From assembly GCA_041944835.1 (NCBI GenBank), contig CP145879.1, positions 283,621 to 315,620 of the forward strand: DNA of 32,000 nt. The letters run 5' to 3'. A program made the position numbers and the translations under genes. The stretch's first letter is position 1; each line of letters begins with the position of its first letter. The notes beneath the pieces were generated by a model that was given only the letters and a program-made list of their open reading frames with translations, had not been told where the DNA came from and did no database searches. Positions 1,745 to 22,478 of the stretch are shown one piece after another. Origin of the DNA: Candidatus Dasytiphilus stammeri. GTDB lineage: Bacteria; Pseudomonadota; Gammaproteobacteria; Enterobacterales; Enterobacteriaceae.

Positions 1745-2704
1745 TTAATATTCTATAACTACAGAAACCGTATCGGAATAAATTCCAGATGGAAGATCTC
1801 TTTGGATTGGATTTATCATAGCTTTATAATATATAAATTGGGGAATTCCAGTTCCAATTAATTTCTTTTTACTATTTTCATTCCAAATAAAATTATTATC
1901 TGGATAATAAATATTATATTCAATATAATGATTATTATTATCACTTAATCGACGCCATAGATTATTAATATTTTTACCTTCAGTAAACCAAAGTTTATAA
2001 TTTTCTTTTTTTGTACAACTTACACTCATATTAAGTTTTAGAGGTTTAAATTGACTTACTAATGCATGACTTCCAAAATTTATATCAGAAATAGTATTAA
2101 TTACACAATCTTTCTTTATGATGGATTGAACGGTTATGAAGGTTGAACCTTTTCCATTCCAAGATGATAAACATACTAAACTACCCAATCTACATATAGA
2201 ATATTCCCAATTAATTTGAATAATATCTTGATATACTCCAGCTCGTACATTGGCATTAGGAAGAGTTTTAATATAAATAGGAACTCTAGAATTAGTGGAG
2301 GAAAAAATCATAGAGATTAAATTAAGATTTTTATAGTCAATAGAATCTCCGATTCTATAAGCATATTGATAATTTTTATCAGGATAAATCATATAAGGAA
2401 TGGAATCTCCTGAACCATCTAAATTTTTCAATTGCATGTTATAAGATGTTCCAATAATCTTACCTTTAATTTTATTATTAGTTAGTAAGGTCATGCTTAG
2501 TCCAGAACATGCTAGTCCAGAGTTACCTTGTGCTTTTATGCTGCCATTTAAAACTGCAAAAGAAGTCGAGTCTCCTAATTCTACTTTTCCATCTGATAAC
2601 CAACAATTAGCTGTTACTCTATTACAAAAAAATAATTTTATTATTACCAATGCTAATGTAATAATAAAAATGGTTTTTTTTAAAATATAACTATTTACTG
2701 ACAA
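1745..2704 (-). CDS. Two-domain fimbrial tip adhesin (CsuE-like) built from two tandem SCPU-like modules; last gene of the chaperone-usher operon
   Basis: The 319-aa ORF has an N-terminal signal peptide (KKTIFIITLALVIIKLFF..VTA). Module 1 ends AGVYQDIIQINWEY and module 2 ends SGIYSDTVSVVIEY, which is the C-terminal beta-strand signature of SCPU pilins. Each module has a Cys pair (NCW..LACSG and KDCVIN..VSCTK). The apparent TTG start at 2704 overlaps the usher stop by 10 nt. Confidence 0.7.
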   Translation of the reverse strand: MSVNSYILKKTIFIITLALVIIKLFFCNRVTANCWLSDGKVELGDSTSFAVLNGSIKAQGNSGLACSGLSMTLLTNNKIKGKIIGTSYNMQLKNLDGSGDSIPYMIYPDKNYQYAYRIGDSIDYKNLNLISMIFSSTNSRVPIYIKTLPNANVRAGVYQDIIQINWEYSICRLGSLVCLSSWNGKGSTFITVQSIIKKDCVINTISDINFGSHALVSQFKPLKLNMSVSCTKKENYKLWFTEGKNINNLWRRLSDNNNHYIEYNIYYPDNNFIWNENSKKKLIGTGIPQFIYYKAMINPIQRDLPSGIYSDTVSVVIEY

Positions 2705-5091
2705 ACTTGTTTCCCTAAATTCAATATTCCATTAAATGTTTTTATTGGTAATCTTACATGACAAGATTTTCCATTATCTGATCGAGTAATTGTGAGTTTA
2801 GGATATTTTTGGTTAAATCCTTCAATCCAAACTTGTCCCTGCCAACCTAACCAAGTTACTATCGATGTTCCTTTTATTTTAACTATACTACCATTGGGTA
2901 AATAATTACCTTTTTTATCGACTATACTAAACAGTAGTGCATTAAATTTATGAATATCAAACTCTATTAAATATCCACTATGTTCTTTGATAGGTATTTT
3001 TTTGGTGGTTTCTGTTGCAATTACATCGACTGGTAATTTAAGAGGATTTATATCAAATTTTGATCTATACCATCCAGTAATTGTTGGAATTAATAAATAT
3101 CCCAACCGGTTTGTTTTACCTACAAACTGATTTTCATAAAATACTGGGATTTTACCATATCCCTTAGTAGATACTAATACAAAAGCATCATAAATAGGTT
3201 GAGTGACATAGATATGTCCTGCTATATTAACTAGCGATCCCTCAAATTCAATCCAGCTATTTTCATTATTATAAAAATCACCAAAAATTCCAAATCTATT
3301 TTCAAAATATCGATTTTTCCAAAAAAAATTAGCTTCATGATATTTATTATCTTTTGCATTTTGAGAAACCATTAAATTCCAACCAATTTCTGCATTATTA
3401 TTTGTGGTAATTTTATTACTCCAGATTTGACTTGAATTAATATTTTCATTGTCATCTACAGTTGATGATAATGAAGTATTACCATTACCCCAAAAATTCA
3501 AGGGTAAAGTTAACATTAATTGGGCATTAAAATTAGGATGATTGGTTTTTTTGTTTATAGAAGCTAATAAATTTATAGTTTTTGGCAATGTAATACTATA
3601 AGAGAGATTAAAAAATCGATTTGTCTTACCTTTATTATTCCATGTATTTATTAATCCTAAACTCAAATTTCCATAATTTCCAAAATTTATGCTTCCACTA
3701 AGATTATTTACATGCCTCTTGGCTTTTGAAAATTTATAATCAGACAAATTACTATAATTATAATTGCTGAAGCTATGTAAAGCACTTAAATTAAAGTATG
3801 TATTATTATAATTATAACCAATACTTATTTTTTGACCCCGATTATTTGGAATTAATGATGATTTATAAAAATGACTTTTAATATTATTATTAGTGATACC
3901 ACTTCTACTCCAAGATATATTAACAACTCCTAACATCATTGGTTTGATATTGGCACCCACACCATAATTTAGTAAATCTCGATTTACTTCCATTTTTCCT
4001 TCTAAAGTCAACCAAGATTTTATTCCATGACGCATCATACCACTAGCAATTAGATGACTATAATTCATTGAATTTATACCGTAATCTTCACGCAATAGTC
4101 CTAATGAGAGACTAAAATTAGTTAATCCTTTCTTTAATAGTTCACTAGTAACATAAAAGGGTATTAGATTAATTTTCTTCTTATTTGGAGAAAAAATAAC
4201 TATTTTTGCTTTACTAGCACCTTGTAAATTAGGAATTGCATCTATTAAAATGAAAGGTCCAGGATTAATCTTCTTTGCAGACATTATTTGAGAATTATTA
4301 ATATAAAGATCAACTTTACTTGGTTCAACTGTCTGACTATAAAAAGTAGGTAATGGATATGTAATTAGATCGGGACATAATGAAAAATTACGGAATAATT
4401 TAATGCCACCTATCCTTAGAGGAATAGATCCAAATAATGTATCAGTAATACTATCTCCTATTATATAACTTACTAGATGTTTTTCATCGTTTATATCCCA
4501 ATGAGTATCATAGCGTATAAAGGGTTTAGATAATTCATTACTCCAACTACTTGTATTTGACAAAACCCCCCACTTACTAAATACACGTAATTCGGACCAA
4601 AACGTTAAAAATCCAATGTTATATTTATATGAATAAAATTGTCTATGAAAATAAAAATTATAATTAAATAACCATCCAAAGTTACTTTGACTAGGTATAT
4701 TTTTTTCAAGTAATCTTTTCTGATTACTTAAAAATATTTTTTGCTTTGGAAACCAAAAAAATGGTACGTTGATGATTAATTTTTGCGATTTAATCTCATA
4801 TTGAATATGTACATCTTTGATTTCATCTATAGCAATAAAATTGGAAAGCTTTATATTATTTGGAATAATAAGTCCAGCAGATCTAAGTTCTTTCAATCTA
4901 ATATAATAATGACCATTATTTAAATTAACCCTAATAATTTTTCCTGTATCTATTCCATTAAGAACTAATTCTAGATAAAGCTGATTAGCAGCAGGTATTA
5001 CTTCTAAGTAATTACCTAATGCAAAGTTTATTGAAAGTAAAAATATAATCAATAAAAAAAAAATTTGTTTAATAAATTTATATCCATTCAA
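2695..5091 (-). CDS. Outer-membrane fimbrial usher (FimD/PapC/CsuD family)
   Basis: The 798-aa ORF has a signal peptide (FFLLIIFLLSINFALG). Its size, its aromatic, Asn/Ser/Gly-rich beta-barrel-like composition, and its position between a PapD-like chaperone and an adhesin gene all fit an usher. The apparent TTG start lies 3 nt after the chaperone stop. Confidence 0.8.
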   Translation of the reverse strand: MNGYKFIKQIFFLLIIFLLSINFALGNYLEVIPAANQLYLELVLNGIDTGKIIRVNLNNGHYYIRLKELRSAGLIIPNNIKLSNFIAIDEIKDVHIQYEIKSQKLIINVPFFWFPKQKIFLSNQKRLLEKNIPSQSNFGWLFNYNFYFHRQFYSYKYNIGFLTFWSELRVFSKWGVLSNTSSWSNELSKPFIRYDTHWDINDEKHLVSYIIGDSITDTLFGSIPLRIGGIKLFRNFSLCPDLITYPLPTFYSQTVEPSKVDLYINNSQIMSAKKINPGPFILIDAIPNLQGASKAKIVIFSPNKKKINLIPFYVTSELLKKGLTNFSLSLGLLREDYGINSMNYSHLIASGMMRHGIKSWLTLEGKMEVNRDLLNYGVGANIKPMMLGVVNISWSRSGITNNNIKSHFYKSSLIPNNRGQKISIGYNYNNTYFNLSALHSFSNYNYSNLSDYKFSKAKRHVNNLSGSINFGNYGNLSLGLINTWNNKGKTNRFFNLSYSITLPKTINLLASINKKTNHPNFNAQLMLTLPLNFWGNGNTSLSSTVDDNENINSSQIWSNKITTNNNAEIGWNLMVSQNAKDNKYHEANFFWKNRYFENRFGIFGDFYNNENSWIEFEGSLVNIAGHIYVTQPIYDAFVLVSTKGYGKIPVFYENQFVGKTNRLGYLLIPTITGWYRSKFDINPLKLPVDVIATETTKKIPIKEHSGYLIEFDIHKFNALLFSIVDKKGNYLPNGSIVKIKGTSIVTWLGWQGQVWIEGFNQKYPKLTITRSDNGKSCHVRLPIKTFNGILNLGKQVCQ

Positions 5092-5094
5092 ATA

Positions 5095-5871
5095 TTAAAA
5101 TTCTGGCATTAATTGTTGAAACTGCAAATTATCGTTAACTTTAGCTACTAAAAATCCTTTAGAGAATATAAATGGCGTGGATAAAGGCAAAAAAATTTCA
5201 GCTTGAGGTAAAATATATGCAAACAATCCATTATTAATGATATGTTTGATTTTTCCATCTAAAAACATAATATCAGTAACTTTAGCATGAACTAACCCTT
5301 TATTATGGATTATTAATAATTTTTTACCATTTTTTGTTATTATACGATAATATAATATCGGATGAGTGGCTGGCCTTAGATGGTTTAGATGTTGATAATC
5401 CGGTTTAGTCCAAATATTCTTACCATCTATAAATAATGGTATGGAATAACGCATTTTAAAATTTAAACCGATTTTATTTTTAGTAGGTTCTATAGTTTTA
5501 GGAATTTCATCAATAAGTATTCGATAACTCCATTGGTGGTATTGAGGAGGAGTTAAAATTTTTACTAGTCTAATTAATTGCTTATTTTTAGGTAAAATTT
5601 CAACCATGGGTGGACTAACAATTATTTCCTGTTGTTCTGAAAGCTGATTCTCATAATTTTTTTGTTTCCAACTAAAAACTCGAATTTGTACTAAAATAGA
5701 ATTAGAATTATGGTTTTCTAACCATAATTCAGCCGCATTTTGATCCGCTTCAATTACCGGATCAAGCGGCCAAATTAATATTGATGAATTAGCTAAAAGT
5801 GAAGTATTGCATATCATTAAATATGATGCTAATATCACTAGCCAAGAAAATATTGTTCTTTTTGTCTGCAT
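5095..5871 (-). CDS. Periplasmic fimbrial chaperone (PapD-like, CsuC type)
   Basis: The 258-aa ORF has a signal peptide. It carries motifs I recognise from Csu-type chaperones: ILIWPLDPVIEA, VQIRVFSWKQ, IIVSPPM, SYRILIDEIP and FKMRYSIPLF. Confidence 0.85.
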   Translation of the reverse strand: MQTKRTIFSWLVILASYLMICNTSLLANSSILIWPLDPVIEADQNAAELWLENHNSNSILVQIRVFSWKQKNYENQLSEQQEIIVSPPMVEILPKNKQLIRLVKILTPPQYHQWSYRILIDEIPKTIEPTKNKIGLNFKMRYSIPLFIDGKNIWTKPDYQHLNHLRPATHPILYYRIITKNGKKLLIIHNKGLVHAKVTDIMFLDGKIKHIINNGLFAYILPQAEIFLPLSTPFIFSKGFLVAKVNDNLQFQQLMPEF

Positions 5872-5889
5872 AATCTTTTTTTTTAATAC

Positions 5890-6459
5890 CTAATAACTAA
5901 TAGTCATCGTTACTATATCCTCATACTGACCGGCTTCTGGTAAAATATTAGAATTGAATAAACGTGCATAAATATAATATTTATTAACTATTCCTAATAT
6001 AATTATAGATTTACTATTACCACCATTAATATCATTTCCCCAGATTATACTATGTGCAGCGTCTTGAAATAATTGATACCGTAACATTTTATTTCCAGAT
6101 TTTTTCTTTAGTAAGCGTCCCTGACTGATATTACCCATTCGATTTATTCCACTATCTAATGCTAAATTTACATTAACACCTGGAGTACATTTTAATACTA
6201 TTGATCCTAAATCATAACTAGAAAGAGTATCTATAGGTTGTTGAATAGAAGTAACATTACCAAAATTAATAGTATTTAGATGAATGGAATTGTGATTTAA
6301 TTTACAACCTTTAACTATATTTGCATGAACCTGAAAATTTCGGCTATTACTAGAAGAATAAGTTTGGTTATCTGCTTGAATACTTACGACAAAGAAGACC
6401 TCTAGTAGTATAACCATACCTATTCGTAATAGTAGTAAAATTAAATATTTGATGAGCAT
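5890..6459 (-). CDS. SCPU (spore coat U) domain fimbrial subunit, minor/second pilin
   Basis: The 189-aa ORF has a signal peptide ending SIQA. Family hallmarks are GCKLN...INFGNV, LKCTPG, YQLFQDAAH..IWG and the C-terminal AGQYEDIVTMTISY. Confidence 0.8.
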   Translation of the reverse strand: MLIKYLILLLLRIGMVILLEVFFVVSIQADNQTYSSSNSRNFQVHANIVKGCKLNHNSIHLNTINFGNVTSIQQPIDTLSSYDLGSIVLKCTPGVNVNLALDSGINRMGNISQGRLLKKKSGNKMLRYQLFQDAAHSIIWGNDINGGNSKSIIILGIVNKYYIYARLFNSNILPEAGQYEDIVTMTISY

Positions 6460-6504
6460 AAAACTATAATGATTATAAAGTAGTCATAATTTTATATCAT
6501 TTCC

Positions 6505-6999
6505 TTACCAACTAACTGTAACAGTTACTGTATCGGTATAAGTCCCAGCTTTAACTGATGGTTGTTTTGGGATGCGTCCATAAATCGTTAAAGCAGTTTC
6601 TTTTCCGGTTCCAGCTTGAGATAATTTACTGTCCCAGAGTTTTGTATGGGCAGCATTTTGGTACAAATCATATTTAATATAATCTCCTTGTTCTCCTTTC
6701 ATACGTCTTTGTTTTCCATCTGGTTGTGATCCATCATTTAAACTTACATAATAACTTAATCCTTTTGTACAATTTAATCCTATAGATCCTCCAGTTCCCG
6801 TTGACTGAGCATCAATTACATTATTAAGATTTGGATGTTCTCCAAAATCTATATTACCAAAATGCATTAAGGTCCCTCGTGTCACTTCACAACCATTACC
6901 GATAATTATTTGTACATCTAAATTATTTTCTATTTGTCCTCCTGCATAAACATAAGCAGAAAAAAATAGAATTGATAGTATTGATAATACTTTTATCAT
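6505..6999 (-). CDS. SCPU domain fimbrial major subunit (CsuA/B-like), first gene of the operon
   Basis: Hallmarks are GCEV...IDFGEH, LNCTKG, YDLYQNAAHTKLW and the C-terminal AGTYTDTVTVTVSW. I place the start at the internal ATG 6999..6997 (MIKVLSILSILFFSAYVYAGG, a clean signal peptide). That ATG is preceded by AAGGA 8 nt upstream, whereas the ORF-track start at 7044 adds 15 non-signal residues and has no RBS. Confidence 0.8.
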   Translation of the reverse strand: MIKVLSILSILFFSAYVYAGGQIENNLDVQIIIGNGCEVTRGTLMHFGNIDFGEHPNLNNVIDAQSTGTGGSIGLNCTKGLSYYVSLNDGSQPDGKQRRMKGEQGDYIKYDLYQNAAHTKLWDSKLSQAGTGKETALTIYGRIPKQPSVKAGTYTDTVTVTVSW

Positions 7000-7070
7000 A
7001 TTGATTATCCTTTTAGTTATTTCATCATATATGGATATGATCAATGAATGATATAAATCTTATTCTTTAA

Positions 7071-7098
7071 AGTGTAAAATAAGTCGATGATTTGTCAA
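7071..7098 (-). promoter_or_regulatory. Candidate sigma70 promoter for the pilus operon
   Basis: On the minus strand: TTGACA (7098..7093), a 16-nt spacer, then TACACT (7076..7071). It lies about 70 nt upstream of the pilin ATG, in the 125-nt gap after hflC. A perfect -35 hexamer is uncommon but not rare by chance in AT-rich DNA. Confidence 0.3.
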
Positions 7099-7124: not shown

Positions 7125-8054
7125 TTAAGATGATGGATGAGGTTTTTTATTATAATATGGAATTATATTACGTAAAAAAGGAAGATTAATATTTAATATA
7201 ATTAAATCTTGATTATATTTAAATATTTTTTTATAAGCCTGCAAAGTACGAACAAAACGATAAAAATTAGTATCGTGATTAAAATAAGTTGCAAATAGTT
7301 TAGCTACTAATGCATCAGCTTCTCCATGTATAACATGTGCTTGTTTTTTAGCTTCAGCTATAGTATATATTACTTCATAATCCGCAGCCGCACGAATTTT
7401 TTCAGCTTTTTCTTTACCTTGATAACGATGAAGAAGAGCATCTGAATCCAGTTCAGCACGCATTCTATTATATATAGAATCTGAAACTTCATTAGGTAAA
7501 TTTATTTTTTTGATACGTACATCTACTACTTGAATTCCTAATATATTTTGTGCTAGTTGTTCAGTATCATATGTATTAATAATACTTTTATTTAATTTTT
7601 GACGCAATATTGAAATTAACTTTCCTTGTGAATCATTTACAATATCTTTTAGATTTAAATGTCCTATTTCAGAACTCAATTTATCACTAAATGTTTTTCT
7701 AAGAAAATTTTCTACTTGAGAAATTTCTCCTCCTGTACTAACATACAAACGATTAAGATCAGTGATACGCCATTTTATATATGAATCTACAATTATATTT
7801 TTCTTTTCCTTGGTTACAAATTTCTCACTTTTATTTTCTAGAGTTTGAATACGGATATCCAAACCTTTTACTTTTTCAATTAATGGTTTTTTAAAATGTA
7901 ATCCGGGGGATAATACTACTACATTATGATTAATATCTCGTAAAACCTTACCAAAATGTAATAAAATTCCTCGTTGACCTTCTTGGATAATAAAAAAGGA
8001 TGAGTAAAGTAATATTAATATTACTATTAATAAAAATGATAAATATTTACGCAT
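7125..8054 (-). CDS. hflC: FtsH modulator HflC (SPFH/band-7 protein)
   Basis: The 309-aa ORF is colinear with E. coli HflC. Matching segments are EGQRGILLHFGKVLRD, PGLHFKKPLIE, FVTKEKKNIIVDSYIKWRI, VVDVRIKKINLP and IYNRMRAE. Confidence 0.93.
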   Translation of the reverse strand: MRKYLSFLLIVILILLYSSFFIIQEGQRGILLHFGKVLRDINHNVVVLSPGLHFKKPLIEKVKGLDIRIQTLENKSEKFVTKEKKNIIVDSYIKWRITDLNRLYVSTGGEISQVENFLRKTFSDKLSSEIGHLNLKDIVNDSQGKLISILRQKLNKSIINTYDTEQLAQNILGIQVVDVRIKKINLPNEVSDSIYNRMRAELDSDALLHRYQGKEKAEKIRAAADYEVIYTIAEAKKQAHVIHGEADALVAKLFATYFNHDTNFYRFVRTLQAYKKIFKYNQDLIILNINLPFLRNIIPYYNKKPHPSS

Positions 8055-8059
8055 GAATT

Positions 8060-9235
8060 TTATTCCTGATTAGTGCGTATGGCATTAGCTTTACGTTTAT
8101 TCAAAATATCATCGGGTTTTTTATAGTTAGTACTAATATTATTAGATTTTTTATTACTCATTACATCAGAATTCATATTAGTTGTTATAATTTTATTAGA
8201 TCGAGAATTTTTTATTTTTTCTCTAGGAGAAAAATTTTTAAAGTTCAAGGGTATAAATAAAATATTATGAGTATTAGAATCAACCAGTATCTTATGGACA
8301 TGACTCAACATATATTCCATAGTCTGAATATATAATCGTTCTTTAGTAAAGTCAGAAGCTCTTTTATATTCAAGTAGAACTTTCGCAAATTCTGTTACTT
8401 CTCCTTGAGCTTCTAATATAGTACGTGTTTTATAAGCCTGGGCATTTTCAATTATGCGTTGTGCTCTACCACTAGCTTGTTTTTTTACTGCATTAGCATA
8501 AGCTTCTGCTTCACGAATATATTGTTGTTCATTTTCTCGTGCAACCATCGCATCATTAAAAGCAGATTCTACTTCTTCAGGCAGCAGACTAGATCCTTGC
8601 AAATTTATATCTACTAATGTAATTCCCATATGATATGGATCAATAATTTGTTCTAATTCATGTTTAATCTTTCGACAAATAATAGTACGTCCTTCAGTAA
8701 GAAGAGTATCCATACTCAATTTTCCAATTACACCACGCAAAGCACTCTCAGTAGCTTGCCGTAAGCTATCATCTGGATTAGTAACGGAAAAAAGATAATT
8801 TATCGGATTAGTAATCTGATATTGTACATTAATTCTTACCTTAACGATATTTTCATCAGAAGTTAAGATTCTTCCTGTAGCTACTATTTCACGTATCGCT
8901 TCTACATTTATAGGATATACTCTATCAATAAAAGTTAATTTCCAATTTAAACCTGGCATAACTATATGACTAAATTTACCAAACCTAGTTATTACAGCTC
9001 GGTCAGACTCTTTAATGGTATAAAAACCAGTGCTTAGTAAAATTATCAGAGTAATAATCATTATTATTAAAAATAAATTAAAGTTTAAAACTGGATTATT
9101 TTTATTGTGATTACCTCTTATTAGATAAATAAATTTTTGAAATTTACTCGATCCATTTTCATCAAATGTATTTTTATTTTCCCAAGGATCACGAGTTTTT
9201 TTTATACTTTTTCCAGAAGATTGATATAGATTCAT
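8060..9235 (-). CDS. hflK: FtsH modulator HflK
   Basis: The 391-aa ORF matches E. coli HflK at GFYTIKESDRAVITRFGKFSH, PGLNWKLTFID, LTSDENIV, SLRQATESALRGVIGK, ARENEQQYIREAEAY and ILEAQGEV. Confidence 0.93.
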   Translation of the reverse strand: MNLYQSSGKSIKKTRDPWENKNTFDENGSSKFQKFIYLIRGNHNKNNPVLNFNLFLIIMIITLIILLSTGFYTIKESDRAVITRFGKFSHIVMPGLNWKLTFIDRVYPINVEAIREIVATGRILTSDENIVKVRINVQYQITNPINYLFSVTNPDDSLRQATESALRGVIGKLSMDTLLTEGRTIICRKIKHELEQIIDPYHMGITLVDINLQGSSLLPEEVESAFNDAMVARENEQQYIREAEAYANAVKKQASGRAQRIIENAQAYKTRTILEAQGEVTEFAKVLLEYKRASDFTKERLYIQTMEYMLSHVHKILVDSNTHNILFIPLNFKNFSPREKIKNSRSNKIITTNMNSDVMSNKKSNNISTNYKKPDDILNKRKANAIRTNQE

Positions 9236-9324
9236 TTTTATTATACCAAATATAAATATAACCTAAATTGATAATTATTTATTACTACTCTAAAGATTAT
9301 AAAAACCAGCCGGAGTATTGGACT

Positions 9325-9421
9325 CTAGTAAGAAAAAGATTTTGATGGAACTACAATACAAATAGCATGTTTATATATCATTTTAATAACACTTTTTAAA
9401 ATAAAATTGCCCTTTAGCCAT
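9325..9421 (-). pseudogene. hfq: hfq relic: start codon plus Sm2 motif retained, Sm1 region deleted, 1-nt frame disruption
   Basis: The minus strand from 9421 reads atg gct aaa ggg caa = MAKGQ, the Hfq N-terminus. This frame stops after 12 codons. The frame shifted by +1 nt (starting one base 3' of the ATG) reads WLKGNFILKSVIKMIYKHAICIVVPSKSFSY*. Compare E. coli Hfq ..[27 protein letters not shown]. The 97-nt relic sits where hfq belongs, between miaA and hflK. Confidence 0.75.
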
Positions 9422-9532
9422 TCTTTTTATTTCCTTTTCACATAATTTTATATTTATACATAGAGAATTAAAAATTCCATAAGAATAGGTGAATTAAAAA
9501 TTCATGGTATAAACTCGATTACTATAAAATAA

Positions 9533-14172: not shown

Positions 14173-14248
14173 TGGAGCGGGAAACGAGAATCGAACTCGC
14201 GACCCTAACCTTGGCAAGGTTATGCTCTACCAACTGAGCTATTCCCGC
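14173..14248 (-). tRNA. glyV: tRNA-Gly (anticodon GCC), CCA encoded
   Basis: The reverse complement is GCGGGAATAGCTCAGTTGGTAGAGCATAACCTTGCCAAGGTTAGGGTCGCGAGTTCGATTCTCGTTTCCCGCTCCA. The acceptor stem (GCGGGAA/TTCCCGC) and anticodon stem (TAACC/GGTTA) pair perfectly, and the loop TTGCCAA gives anticodon GCC. It is near-identical to the E. coli glyVXY tRNA and has the same position next to orn. Confidence 0.97.
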
Positions 14249-22149: not shown

Positions 22150-22170
22150 GCTAATTTGTTCAAAATTCGT

Positions 22171-22332
<162 letters not shown>

Positions 22333-22349
22333 TTATAAGAGATAAGGTT

Positions 22350-22378
22350 ATTTTATCAATTCTTGTTATAGTAGTCAA
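22350..22378 (-). promoter_or_regulatory. Candidate sigma70 promoter for rpmH-rnpA-yidD-yidC
   Basis: On the minus strand: TTGACT (22378..22373), a 17-nt spacer, then TAAAAT (22355..22350). It lies about 40 nt upstream of the rpmH ATG. Confidence 0.35.
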
Positions 22379-22390
22379 TTTCGTTAATAT
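22363..22390 (+). promoter_or_regulatory. Candidate sigma70 promoter for dnaN-gyrB, overlapping back-to-back with the rpmH promoter
   Basis: On the plus strand: TTGTTA (22363..22368), a 16-nt spacer, then TAATAT (22385..22390). It lies about 90 nt upstream of the dnaN ATG. Such hexamers are frequent by chance in AT-rich DNA. Confidence 0.25.
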
Positions 22391-22478
22391 ATTTTAAAAT
22401 ATGTATTTATCTAAAAATTGAGTATATGATCTAACCTTGAGATTTTTAATCTACTGAATTTTAAAAAAAAATTATAAG

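Follow-up and report, generated by a model that had tools for sequence, protein, structure and literature searches.

The 32,000-nucleotide (nt) stretch of the Candidatus Dasytiphilus stammeri chromosome analysed here (assembly GCA_041944835.1, contig CP145879.1, positions 283,621-315,620; hereafter, the window) almost certainly carries an intact operon for an archaic (sigma, Csu/CupE-type) chaperone-usher pilus that is under selection. Five genes on the minus strand encode, in the order of transcription, two pilins, a periplasmic chaperone, an outer-membrane usher, and a two-domain tip adhesin. Dasytiphilus is a bacteriome symbiont of pollen-feeding beetles, and the strain considered here comes from Dasytes alpigradus and has a genome of 476,890 bp (PMC11191362). 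We read the operon as encoding a working, vertically inherited, and selected archaic pilus that serves an extracellular phase of transmission or colonization, and give this reading as a whole a probability of roughly 55%.

The first-pass annotation, made from the letters of the window, had named the same five genes, and this assignment is borne out by Pfam, by matches to the Csu and CupE structures, and by AlphaFold2 (AF2) models. All five products score above the Pfam gathering score, which for the SCPU domain (PF05229) is 22.4 bits; an additional PapC_C match in the usher (1.5e-4) is under the cut-off. The structural subunits carry the SCPU domain and not the classical Fimbrial domain (PF00419). 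In the search against NCBIfam, the three SCPU proteins had no match, and the chaperone and the usher had weak, sub-threshold ones only. Four C-terminal motifs of the SCPU family had been pointed out, and all of them are found in the translations (AGTYTDTVTVTVSW, AGQYEDIVTMTISY, AGVYQDIIQINWEY, and SGIYSDTVSVVIEY), AGVYQDIIQINWEY being the end of the adhesin's N-terminal domain. Judged by eye, all five N-termini resemble Sec signal peptides, in agreement with the annotation, and in the AF2 models, a helix at the N-terminus leads into a stretch of low confidence.

The first-position gene (6505-6999; this and all other parts of the operon are on the minus strand) encodes the major pilin, equivalent to CsuA/B and CupE1, of 164 amino acids (aa) with the signal peptide (SCPU, 1.2e-34). 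In a sequence search against solved structures, it matches the SCPU pilin 8cio (1e-23, residues 23-164) and CsuA/B 7zl4 (1e-12). By sequence alignment, the mature N-terminus, IENNLDVQIIIGNGC, corresponds to the N-terminal (donor-strand) segment of the 8cio pilin. The next gene (5890-6459, 189 aa; SCPU, 1.1e-25) encodes a minor pilin that occupies the third position of the six-gene ancestor, that is, the position of CsuB; its best match is pilin 3 of Chimaeribacter (40% identity, 2e-45). The chaperone, equivalent to CsuC (5095-5871, 258 aa; PapD_N, 1.4e-16), matches CsuC 5d6h/6fjy (2e-31, residues 30-226) with an identical MRYSIPLF segment, and CsuC chains are its only solved relatives by sequence. 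The usher, equivalent to CsuD (2695-5091, 798 aa, TTG start; Usher, 4.2e-28), has a marginal sequence match to solved structures (PapC, 6e-5). Its AF2 model, built with 68 homologues, has a predicted local distance difference test (pLDDT) value of 89 and aligns end-to-end with full-length FimD 3rfz_B (812 columns, template modelling score 0.66) and with PapC. As the model is aligned over its full length, the N-terminal domain, the barrel, the plug, and both C-terminal domains are predicted to be present.

By sequence, the adhesin, equivalent to CsuE (1745-2704, 319 aa, TTG start; two SCPU stretches, 2.8e-34), matches CsuE 6fjy_B over the full length at 5.8e-17 and ∼22% identity; the best fold match of its AF2 model (pLDDT 82.6) is again CsuE (1e-18), followed by CfaE, FimH, FocH, and PapG, and LpfD is also among the fold matches. 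The mature protein opens with a cysteine-containing binding domain and not with a donor strand, and it carries six invariant cysteines and two conserved hydrophobic loop motifs. CsuE itself binds hydrophobic surfaces via protruding hydrophobic finger loops (PMC6003481). The equivalent of finger 1 is LSMTLL in the window (SLALAN in CsuE), with the pattern C-S-G-L/F-S/N-M/L/A-T-L/V/F-L across strains. The region of fingers 2 and 3 is represented by one shorter hairpin, whose hydrophobic tip lies between two conserved cysteines, C-x-(L/F/V)-G-x-L-x-C. The adhesin gene also contains an antisense open reading frame (ORF) of 65 aa (2493-2690), which is probably due to chance.

The five ORFs follow each other head-to-tail without internal stops and are flanked by hflC (7125-8054) on one side and a terC-family gene (1009-1716) on the other. 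The initial description of the ORFs as intact stands in this respect, but the start of the first pilin had to be moved. As listed, this ORF spans 6505-7044 and encodes 179 aa from a TTG at 7044. However, the ATG at 6999 has an AAGGA Shine-Dalgarno sequence upstream and, in the alignment of intergenic regions, is the start common to other strains; the pilin most likely starts there and has 164 aa. With this start, positions 7000-7098 are non-coding and comprise the 5' untranslated leader and the promoter. Further along the operon, the TTG start of the usher lies three bases past the chaperone stop (5089-5097), and the TTG start of the adhesin overlaps the end of the usher gene by 10 nt (2695-2704), an overlap kept in most strains. 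This arrangement suggests translational coupling that would fix the subunit ratios.

To characterize the conservation of the operon, we compared ten strains from three host clades, the window strain and nine others. The Dasytes clade is represented by strains from D. virens, D. aeratus, D. niger, and Psilothrix viridicoerulea, and the Dasytastes clade by those from Dasytastes bicolor and Dasytastes sp. 02 and by a strain with a 585,967-bp genome, whose clade was inferred from similarity and shared synteny. The third clade, Listrus, includes the strain from Listrus sp. 06 and a draft genome assigned here because its locus is nearly identical to that of Listrus sp. 06. The operon is situated between hflK-hflC and terC-mutH in all nine other strains; in the Dasytastes clade, lysA additionally lies between the operon and terC. 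Every pilus gene in all ten strains, more than 40 orthologous genes altogether, has an open frame with no internal stop or frameshift. The divergence at third codon positions is 21-54%, and neutral simulation at that rate introduced 7-57 premature stops into each gene; no more than 1 in 1000 simulations ended without any. As so many stops are predicted and none is seen in ten strains, the frames have not stayed open by chance.

The ratios of nonsynonymous to synonymous rates (dN/dS, omega) point in the same direction. Pairwise omega estimated with YN00, which gave no value for three gene pairs, ranges from 0.08 to 0.49 in the major pilin; the corresponding ranges are 0.22-0.33 (chaperone), 0.12-0.27 (usher), and 0.12-0.16 (adhesin), compared with 0.09-0.43 for the flanking hflC, terC, and mutH. 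For the concatenated operon, NG86 yielded 0.34-0.40 with bootstrap upper confidence limits of at most 0.49, and 0.55 was never reached in 200 resamples; we give both sets of values because NG86 underestimates dS in an AT-rich genome. The best conserved parts of the operon are the N-terminal domain of the adhesin, whose mean identity (66%) is at the level of HflC, and the finger-like loops (74% and 70%). By these measures, the operon appears to be kept by purifying selection, with a constraint similar to that on its housekeeping neighbors. This agrees with the earlier suggestion of active maintenance: the frames are open in nine further strains, and omega, at ∼0.1-0.5, is overall not above that of hflC, terC, and mutH. 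The profile hidden Markov model search, the inspection of orthologues for intactness, and dN/dS had all been proposed as tests of that suggestion, and none of them gave a result that contradicts it.

The regulatory region is conserved as well. The putative sigma-70-type promoter (7071-7098) consists of the −35 box TTGACA, a 16-nt spacer, and the −10 box TACACT; it was found by a consensus scan and by cross-strain conservation. The scan alone is uninformative, since it yields 51 promoter-like sites in the window when 45.5 are expected, and our promoter call rests on the conservation: TTGACA is identical in eight of the ten strains, from the Dasytes and Dasytastes clades, and the −10 box (TACACT/TACAAT) is likewise conserved, against a background of near-saturated synonymous sites. 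The leader (7000-7070), delimited in the alignment of the hflC-pilin intergenic regions, contains the AAGGA sequence and a short palindrome, ATCATAT-CCAT-ATATGAT (7020-7040). Four Dasytes-clade strains share the palindrome, but neither the Psilothrix strain nor the other clades have it; it may act as an operator or fold into an RNA hairpin. The terminator scan gave three terminator-like sites compared to 1.5 expected, and no convincing attenuator was found in the interval between the major pilin gene and the next gene.

Outside the symbiont, the closest relatives of the operon are six-gene SCPU operons of free-living Yersiniaceae, namely, Chimaeribacter californicus (PJZF01000001), Nissabacter, Edaphovirga, Serratia, and Yersinia. 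The identity to these relatives is 46% for the adhesin, 41% for the chaperone, 36% for the usher, and 42% for the major pilin. Recent horizontal acquisition was considered and rejected, as synteny at the locus extends across three host clades and the operon does not differ from its flanks in GC content. The operon, judging from these features, is inherited vertically from a free-living Enterobacterales ancestor. The neighbors of the Yersiniaceae operons differ from those in Dasytiphilus, with pqiAB or rsmF on one side and DUF1480 and ASCH genes on the other. In Chimaeribacter, the operon is directly followed by a PAS-GGDEF (diguanylate cyclase) gene (positions 7872-9362 of that locus), which has no counterpart at the Dasytiphilus locus. 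This suggests that the symbiont operon has lost control linked to cyclic di-GMP.

The number of pilin genes varies. The six-gene form with three pilins, the chaperone, the usher, and the adhesin is found in the D. niger symbiont, in C. californicus with the same gene order (p1-p2-p3-chaperone-usher-adhesin), and in another Enterobacterales contig. Reciprocal BLAST searches yielded three pilin orthogroups. The major pilin, orthologous to Chimaeribacter pilin 1, is present in all ten strains. The second-position pilin has been lost in the window strain and its close relatives, leaving five genes, so that the window operon indeed has one pilin fewer than the canonical set, as had been noticed at the outset. 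The third-position pilin is restricted to Dasytes-clade strains, while the Dasytastes clade keeps the second-position pilin instead. In the Listrus strains, both minor pilins are gone and a four-gene operon remains.

Some strains have lost the operon altogether. The published orthologue table records the chaperone, usher, and adhesin for 16 of 20 strains. Neither of the two Danacea nigritarsis strains has any of the three, nor does "Dasytes" lineellus, and all that is left in Listrus sp. 07 is a chaperone orthologue not recognized by KEGG (PMC11191362). This loss pattern is that of the published table, and the strains concerned are not among the seven Dasytiphilus HflC proteins listed. The scan of species-representative genomes yielded a single locus, because the same species name is used for all strains. 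Tentatively, and with more doubt than confidence, we suggest that these independent losses mark lineages with a changed transmission route. If they do, the four-gene Listrus operon would in addition be the smallest natural archaic pilus, for which the minor pilins are not needed.

Formation of a pilus requires assistance from other genes: the disulfides of pilins and adhesins need DsbA, and the folding of ushers depends on SurA. In the window strain, the orthologue table lists secY, lepB, bamA, bamD, degP, dsbA, and surA; the only strains devoid of dsbA and surA are the two from D. nigritarsis, which also lack the pilus, and the other 18 keep both genes (PMC11191362). The absence of dsbA, surA, and the pilus in the same strains is suggestive, yet it represents a single evolutionary event. 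It may be that dsbA and surA are retained mainly for pilus biogenesis. Entries for dsbB, lpxA, flagella, and secretion systems are missing from the same table (PMC11191362). Going by the table, the symbiont would have no surface organelle other than the pilus, and it seems to be incapable of lipid A synthesis. The strains from D. virens, D. aeratus, and P. viridicoerulea, in which peptidoglycan synthesis is reported to be lost (PMC11191362), still carry the complete pilus operon.

If the system operates as known for its family, from which the following pathway is taken, the five products would be exported by Sec, and the CsuC-like chaperone would cap the open groove of each subunit in the periplasm. 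The usher would initiate on the two-domain adhesin and then thread the major pilins, which would be joined by donor-strand exchange into a thin zigzag fiber with no use of ATP at the outer membrane; in such systems, secretion is driven by subunit folding in the fiber (PMC9452303). The adhesin would then be exposed at the fiber tip and bind via its two conserved hydrophobic loops. Having the fewest genes and no need for an energy source at the outer membrane, this is a cheap organelle, which may explain its persistence in a tiny genome.

The authors of the genome paper hypothesize that the symbionts are transmitted through the gut and the egg surface, and report that they were never seen in ovaries and once in the gut (PMC11191362). 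The role that we favor for the pilus is attachment or aggregation outside bacteriocytes, that is, in transmission via the gut and egg surface and in re-colonization of the larval bacteriome. We would put the chances of this particular role, as read from the genes, at about even; it fits the published transmission hypothesis (PMC11191362).

Several points weigh against a functional pilus with an extracellular role. The system is known here from genes, and production of the pilus would have to follow from them; the extracellular transmission route is itself a hypothesis (PMC11191362). With dsbB not in the published table, DsbA would lack its usual re-oxidizer. We know of no precedent for an usher working in an outer membrane without lipid A. 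In A. baumannii, deletion of either minor pilin gene leads to few, abnormal fibers and no biofilm (PMC6003481), whereas Dasytiphilus strains such as that of the window have lost one or both; this reflects either a real difference in assembly or partial loss of function. The TTG start of the usher has changed to TTA in the Psilothrix strain, although the frame that encodes the signal peptide is still open (positions 3836-3990 of that locus), and GenBank lists the protein as 737 aa without a signal peptide; the change could be a first step of decay or a non-canonical start. The second finger of CsuE is ∼16 residues shorter in the Dasytiphilus adhesin, and binding may therefore differ from that of CsuE. 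Finally, since 4 of the 20 strains have no operon, it is dispensable in some hosts.

Other explanations can be proposed for the retention of the operon. The pilus could be made and act inside the bacteriome, anchoring the cells to the host-derived membrane or to each other, or moving them between bacteriocytes. Indeed, the symbiont has been seen almost only packed within bacteriocytes (PMC11191362). Steady, housekeeping-like selection would suit a structure in constant use, and regulation appears to have been lost together with the PAS-GGDEF gene of the Chimaeribacter operon. Still, we consider an intracellular role unlikely, as other bacteriome symbionts of a similar genome size do without any adhesin, and the four strains that have no pilus still live in bacteriomes, meaning that bacteriome life does not require it; moreover, we are aware of no case of pili acting inside symbiosomes.

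Alternatively, the fibers might serve mainly to bundle cells into a protective aggregate or biofilm, e.g. on the egg surface, via pilus-pilus stacking, the adhesin being chiefly an initiator. Csu pili are reported to build three-dimensional biofilms by antiparallel stacking of rods (PMC12996565), and CsuE is required for Csu assembly to start (PMC6003481). The major pilin is also strongly constrained in some pairs (omega 0.08-0.12). Decidedly unlikely in our estimation, this explanation leaves the pattern of conservation within the adhesin unaccounted for: the best conserved parts are the N-terminal domain and the finger loops, which would not be expected if the pilin domain alone mattered for initiation.

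Co-option of the operon for envelope integrity, with a dense coat of SCPU fibers or the usher pore making up for the missing lipid A and, in some strains, the missing peptidoglycan, seems very improbable. It would be in line with the omission of lpxA from the published table and with the retention of the operon in strains that have lost peptidoglycan synthesis, but whether a strain has the operon does not follow the state of its envelope: peptidoglycan-bearing strains keep it too, and the strains from Danacea, "Dasytes" lineellus, and Listrus sp. 07 do without it. A full tip adhesin with conserved loops would also be needless for a coat. Lastly, we give next to no credence to a non-functional relic that has not yet decayed: the losses in 4 of 20 strains, the differential loss of minor pilins, and the mutated Psilothrix usher start would suit it, but more than 40 open orthologous genes with 7-57 stops expected in each, omega well below 1, and the conserved −35 box make it the sole alternative that is excluded by the sequence data.

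Returning to the extracellular pilus that we favor, its closest well-studied counterpart is Csu of Acinetobacter baumannii (csuA/B-A-B-C-D-E), the prototype archaic pilus, which has the same gene order and protein families as the window operon. Csu has six genes, compared to five in the window and four to six in the sister strains. Its host is a free-living opportunist, while Dasytiphilus lives as an obligate endosymbiont in insects, has a genome below 0.5 Mb, and carries no regulator linked to the operon. The CupE system of Pseudomonas aeruginosa also comprises six genes and is under a two-component system. By contrast, no such control is evident in Dasytiphilus. KEGG labels the Dasytiphilus pilins and adhesin as cupE, and CupE is the best sequence match of the window's major pilin among solved structures (PDB 8cio; PMC10104325).

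Archaic fibers are thin zigzags that bind via protruding loops, and differ in this from helical rods, which are thick and have a receptor pocket (PMC9452303, PMC6003481). Similar to the window proteins, as far as these are modelled, the FimD/PapC systems have the same full-length usher architecture and the same two-domain tip adhesin folds, but their pilins carry the Fimbrial domain (PF00419) and not SCPU. Among reduced endosymbionts, Wigglesworthia of tsetse flies keeps flagella, a surface organelle plausibly retained for transmission, as the symbiont has to get out of its bacteriocytes to be passed on to the offspring. It, too, maintains a costly envelope machine in a small genome, although the machine, the host, and the route are different, and the analogy is conceptual only.

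The proteins of the operon are already annotated in GenBank, where the usher has a 100% identical entry under Candidatus Dasytiphilus stammeri. They also appear in the supplementary table of the genome paper (Supplementary file 2), where KEGG files them under "Two-component system" (PMC11191362). This filing may explain why a pathway-centered analysis passed over them; the main text makes no mention of fimbriae, pili, usher, or adhesion (PMC11191362). In the open-access literature, chaperone-usher pili, fimbriae, and SCPU proteins of reduced insect endosymbionts were searched for without success. The family is well known, and the novelty is in the reading and not in the annotation; the interest lies in where the system occurs, how strongly it is conserved, and what experiments it makes possible.

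Bacteriome symbionts with such small genomes normally shed every surface organelle. Retention of the pilus under a constraint comparable to that of housekeeping genes suggests that, at some stage of its life, the symbiont has to hold on to something with its cell surface. This retention provides a molecular handle on the question raised by the genome authors, of a bacteriome symbiont transmitted through a phase outside the host body. In addition, the series of six-, five-, four-, and zero-gene strains is a natural experiment on which subunits of an archaic pilus are dispensable, and the fact that dsbA and surA seem to have been lost along with the pilus gives a hint as to which helper genes serve it alone.

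The remaining genes around the operon in the window are housekeeping ones: mutH, hflKC, miaA, mutL, tsaE, efp, dxs, ispA, mnmE, yidC, rnpA, rpmH, dnaN, gyrB, lysS, and prfB. The first-pass annotation had listed dnaA, recF, hfq, hflX, and amiB as lost, and the gene order confirms that they are missing from their usual places. In particular, the 297-nt gap between miaA and hflK (9236-9532), where other Enterobacterales carry hfq and hflX, contains no ORF of at least 31 aa and has no match in Rfam. The tsaE gene is followed by mutL, and amiB is absent from its usual place. The rnpA-rpmH pair is separated by ∼150 nt from the divergently transcribed dnaN, with no dnaA (22150-22478), and dnaN is directly followed by gyrB, with no recF between them. 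The sole RNA gene detected in the window is tRNA-Gly(GCC), on the minus strand at 14173-14248.

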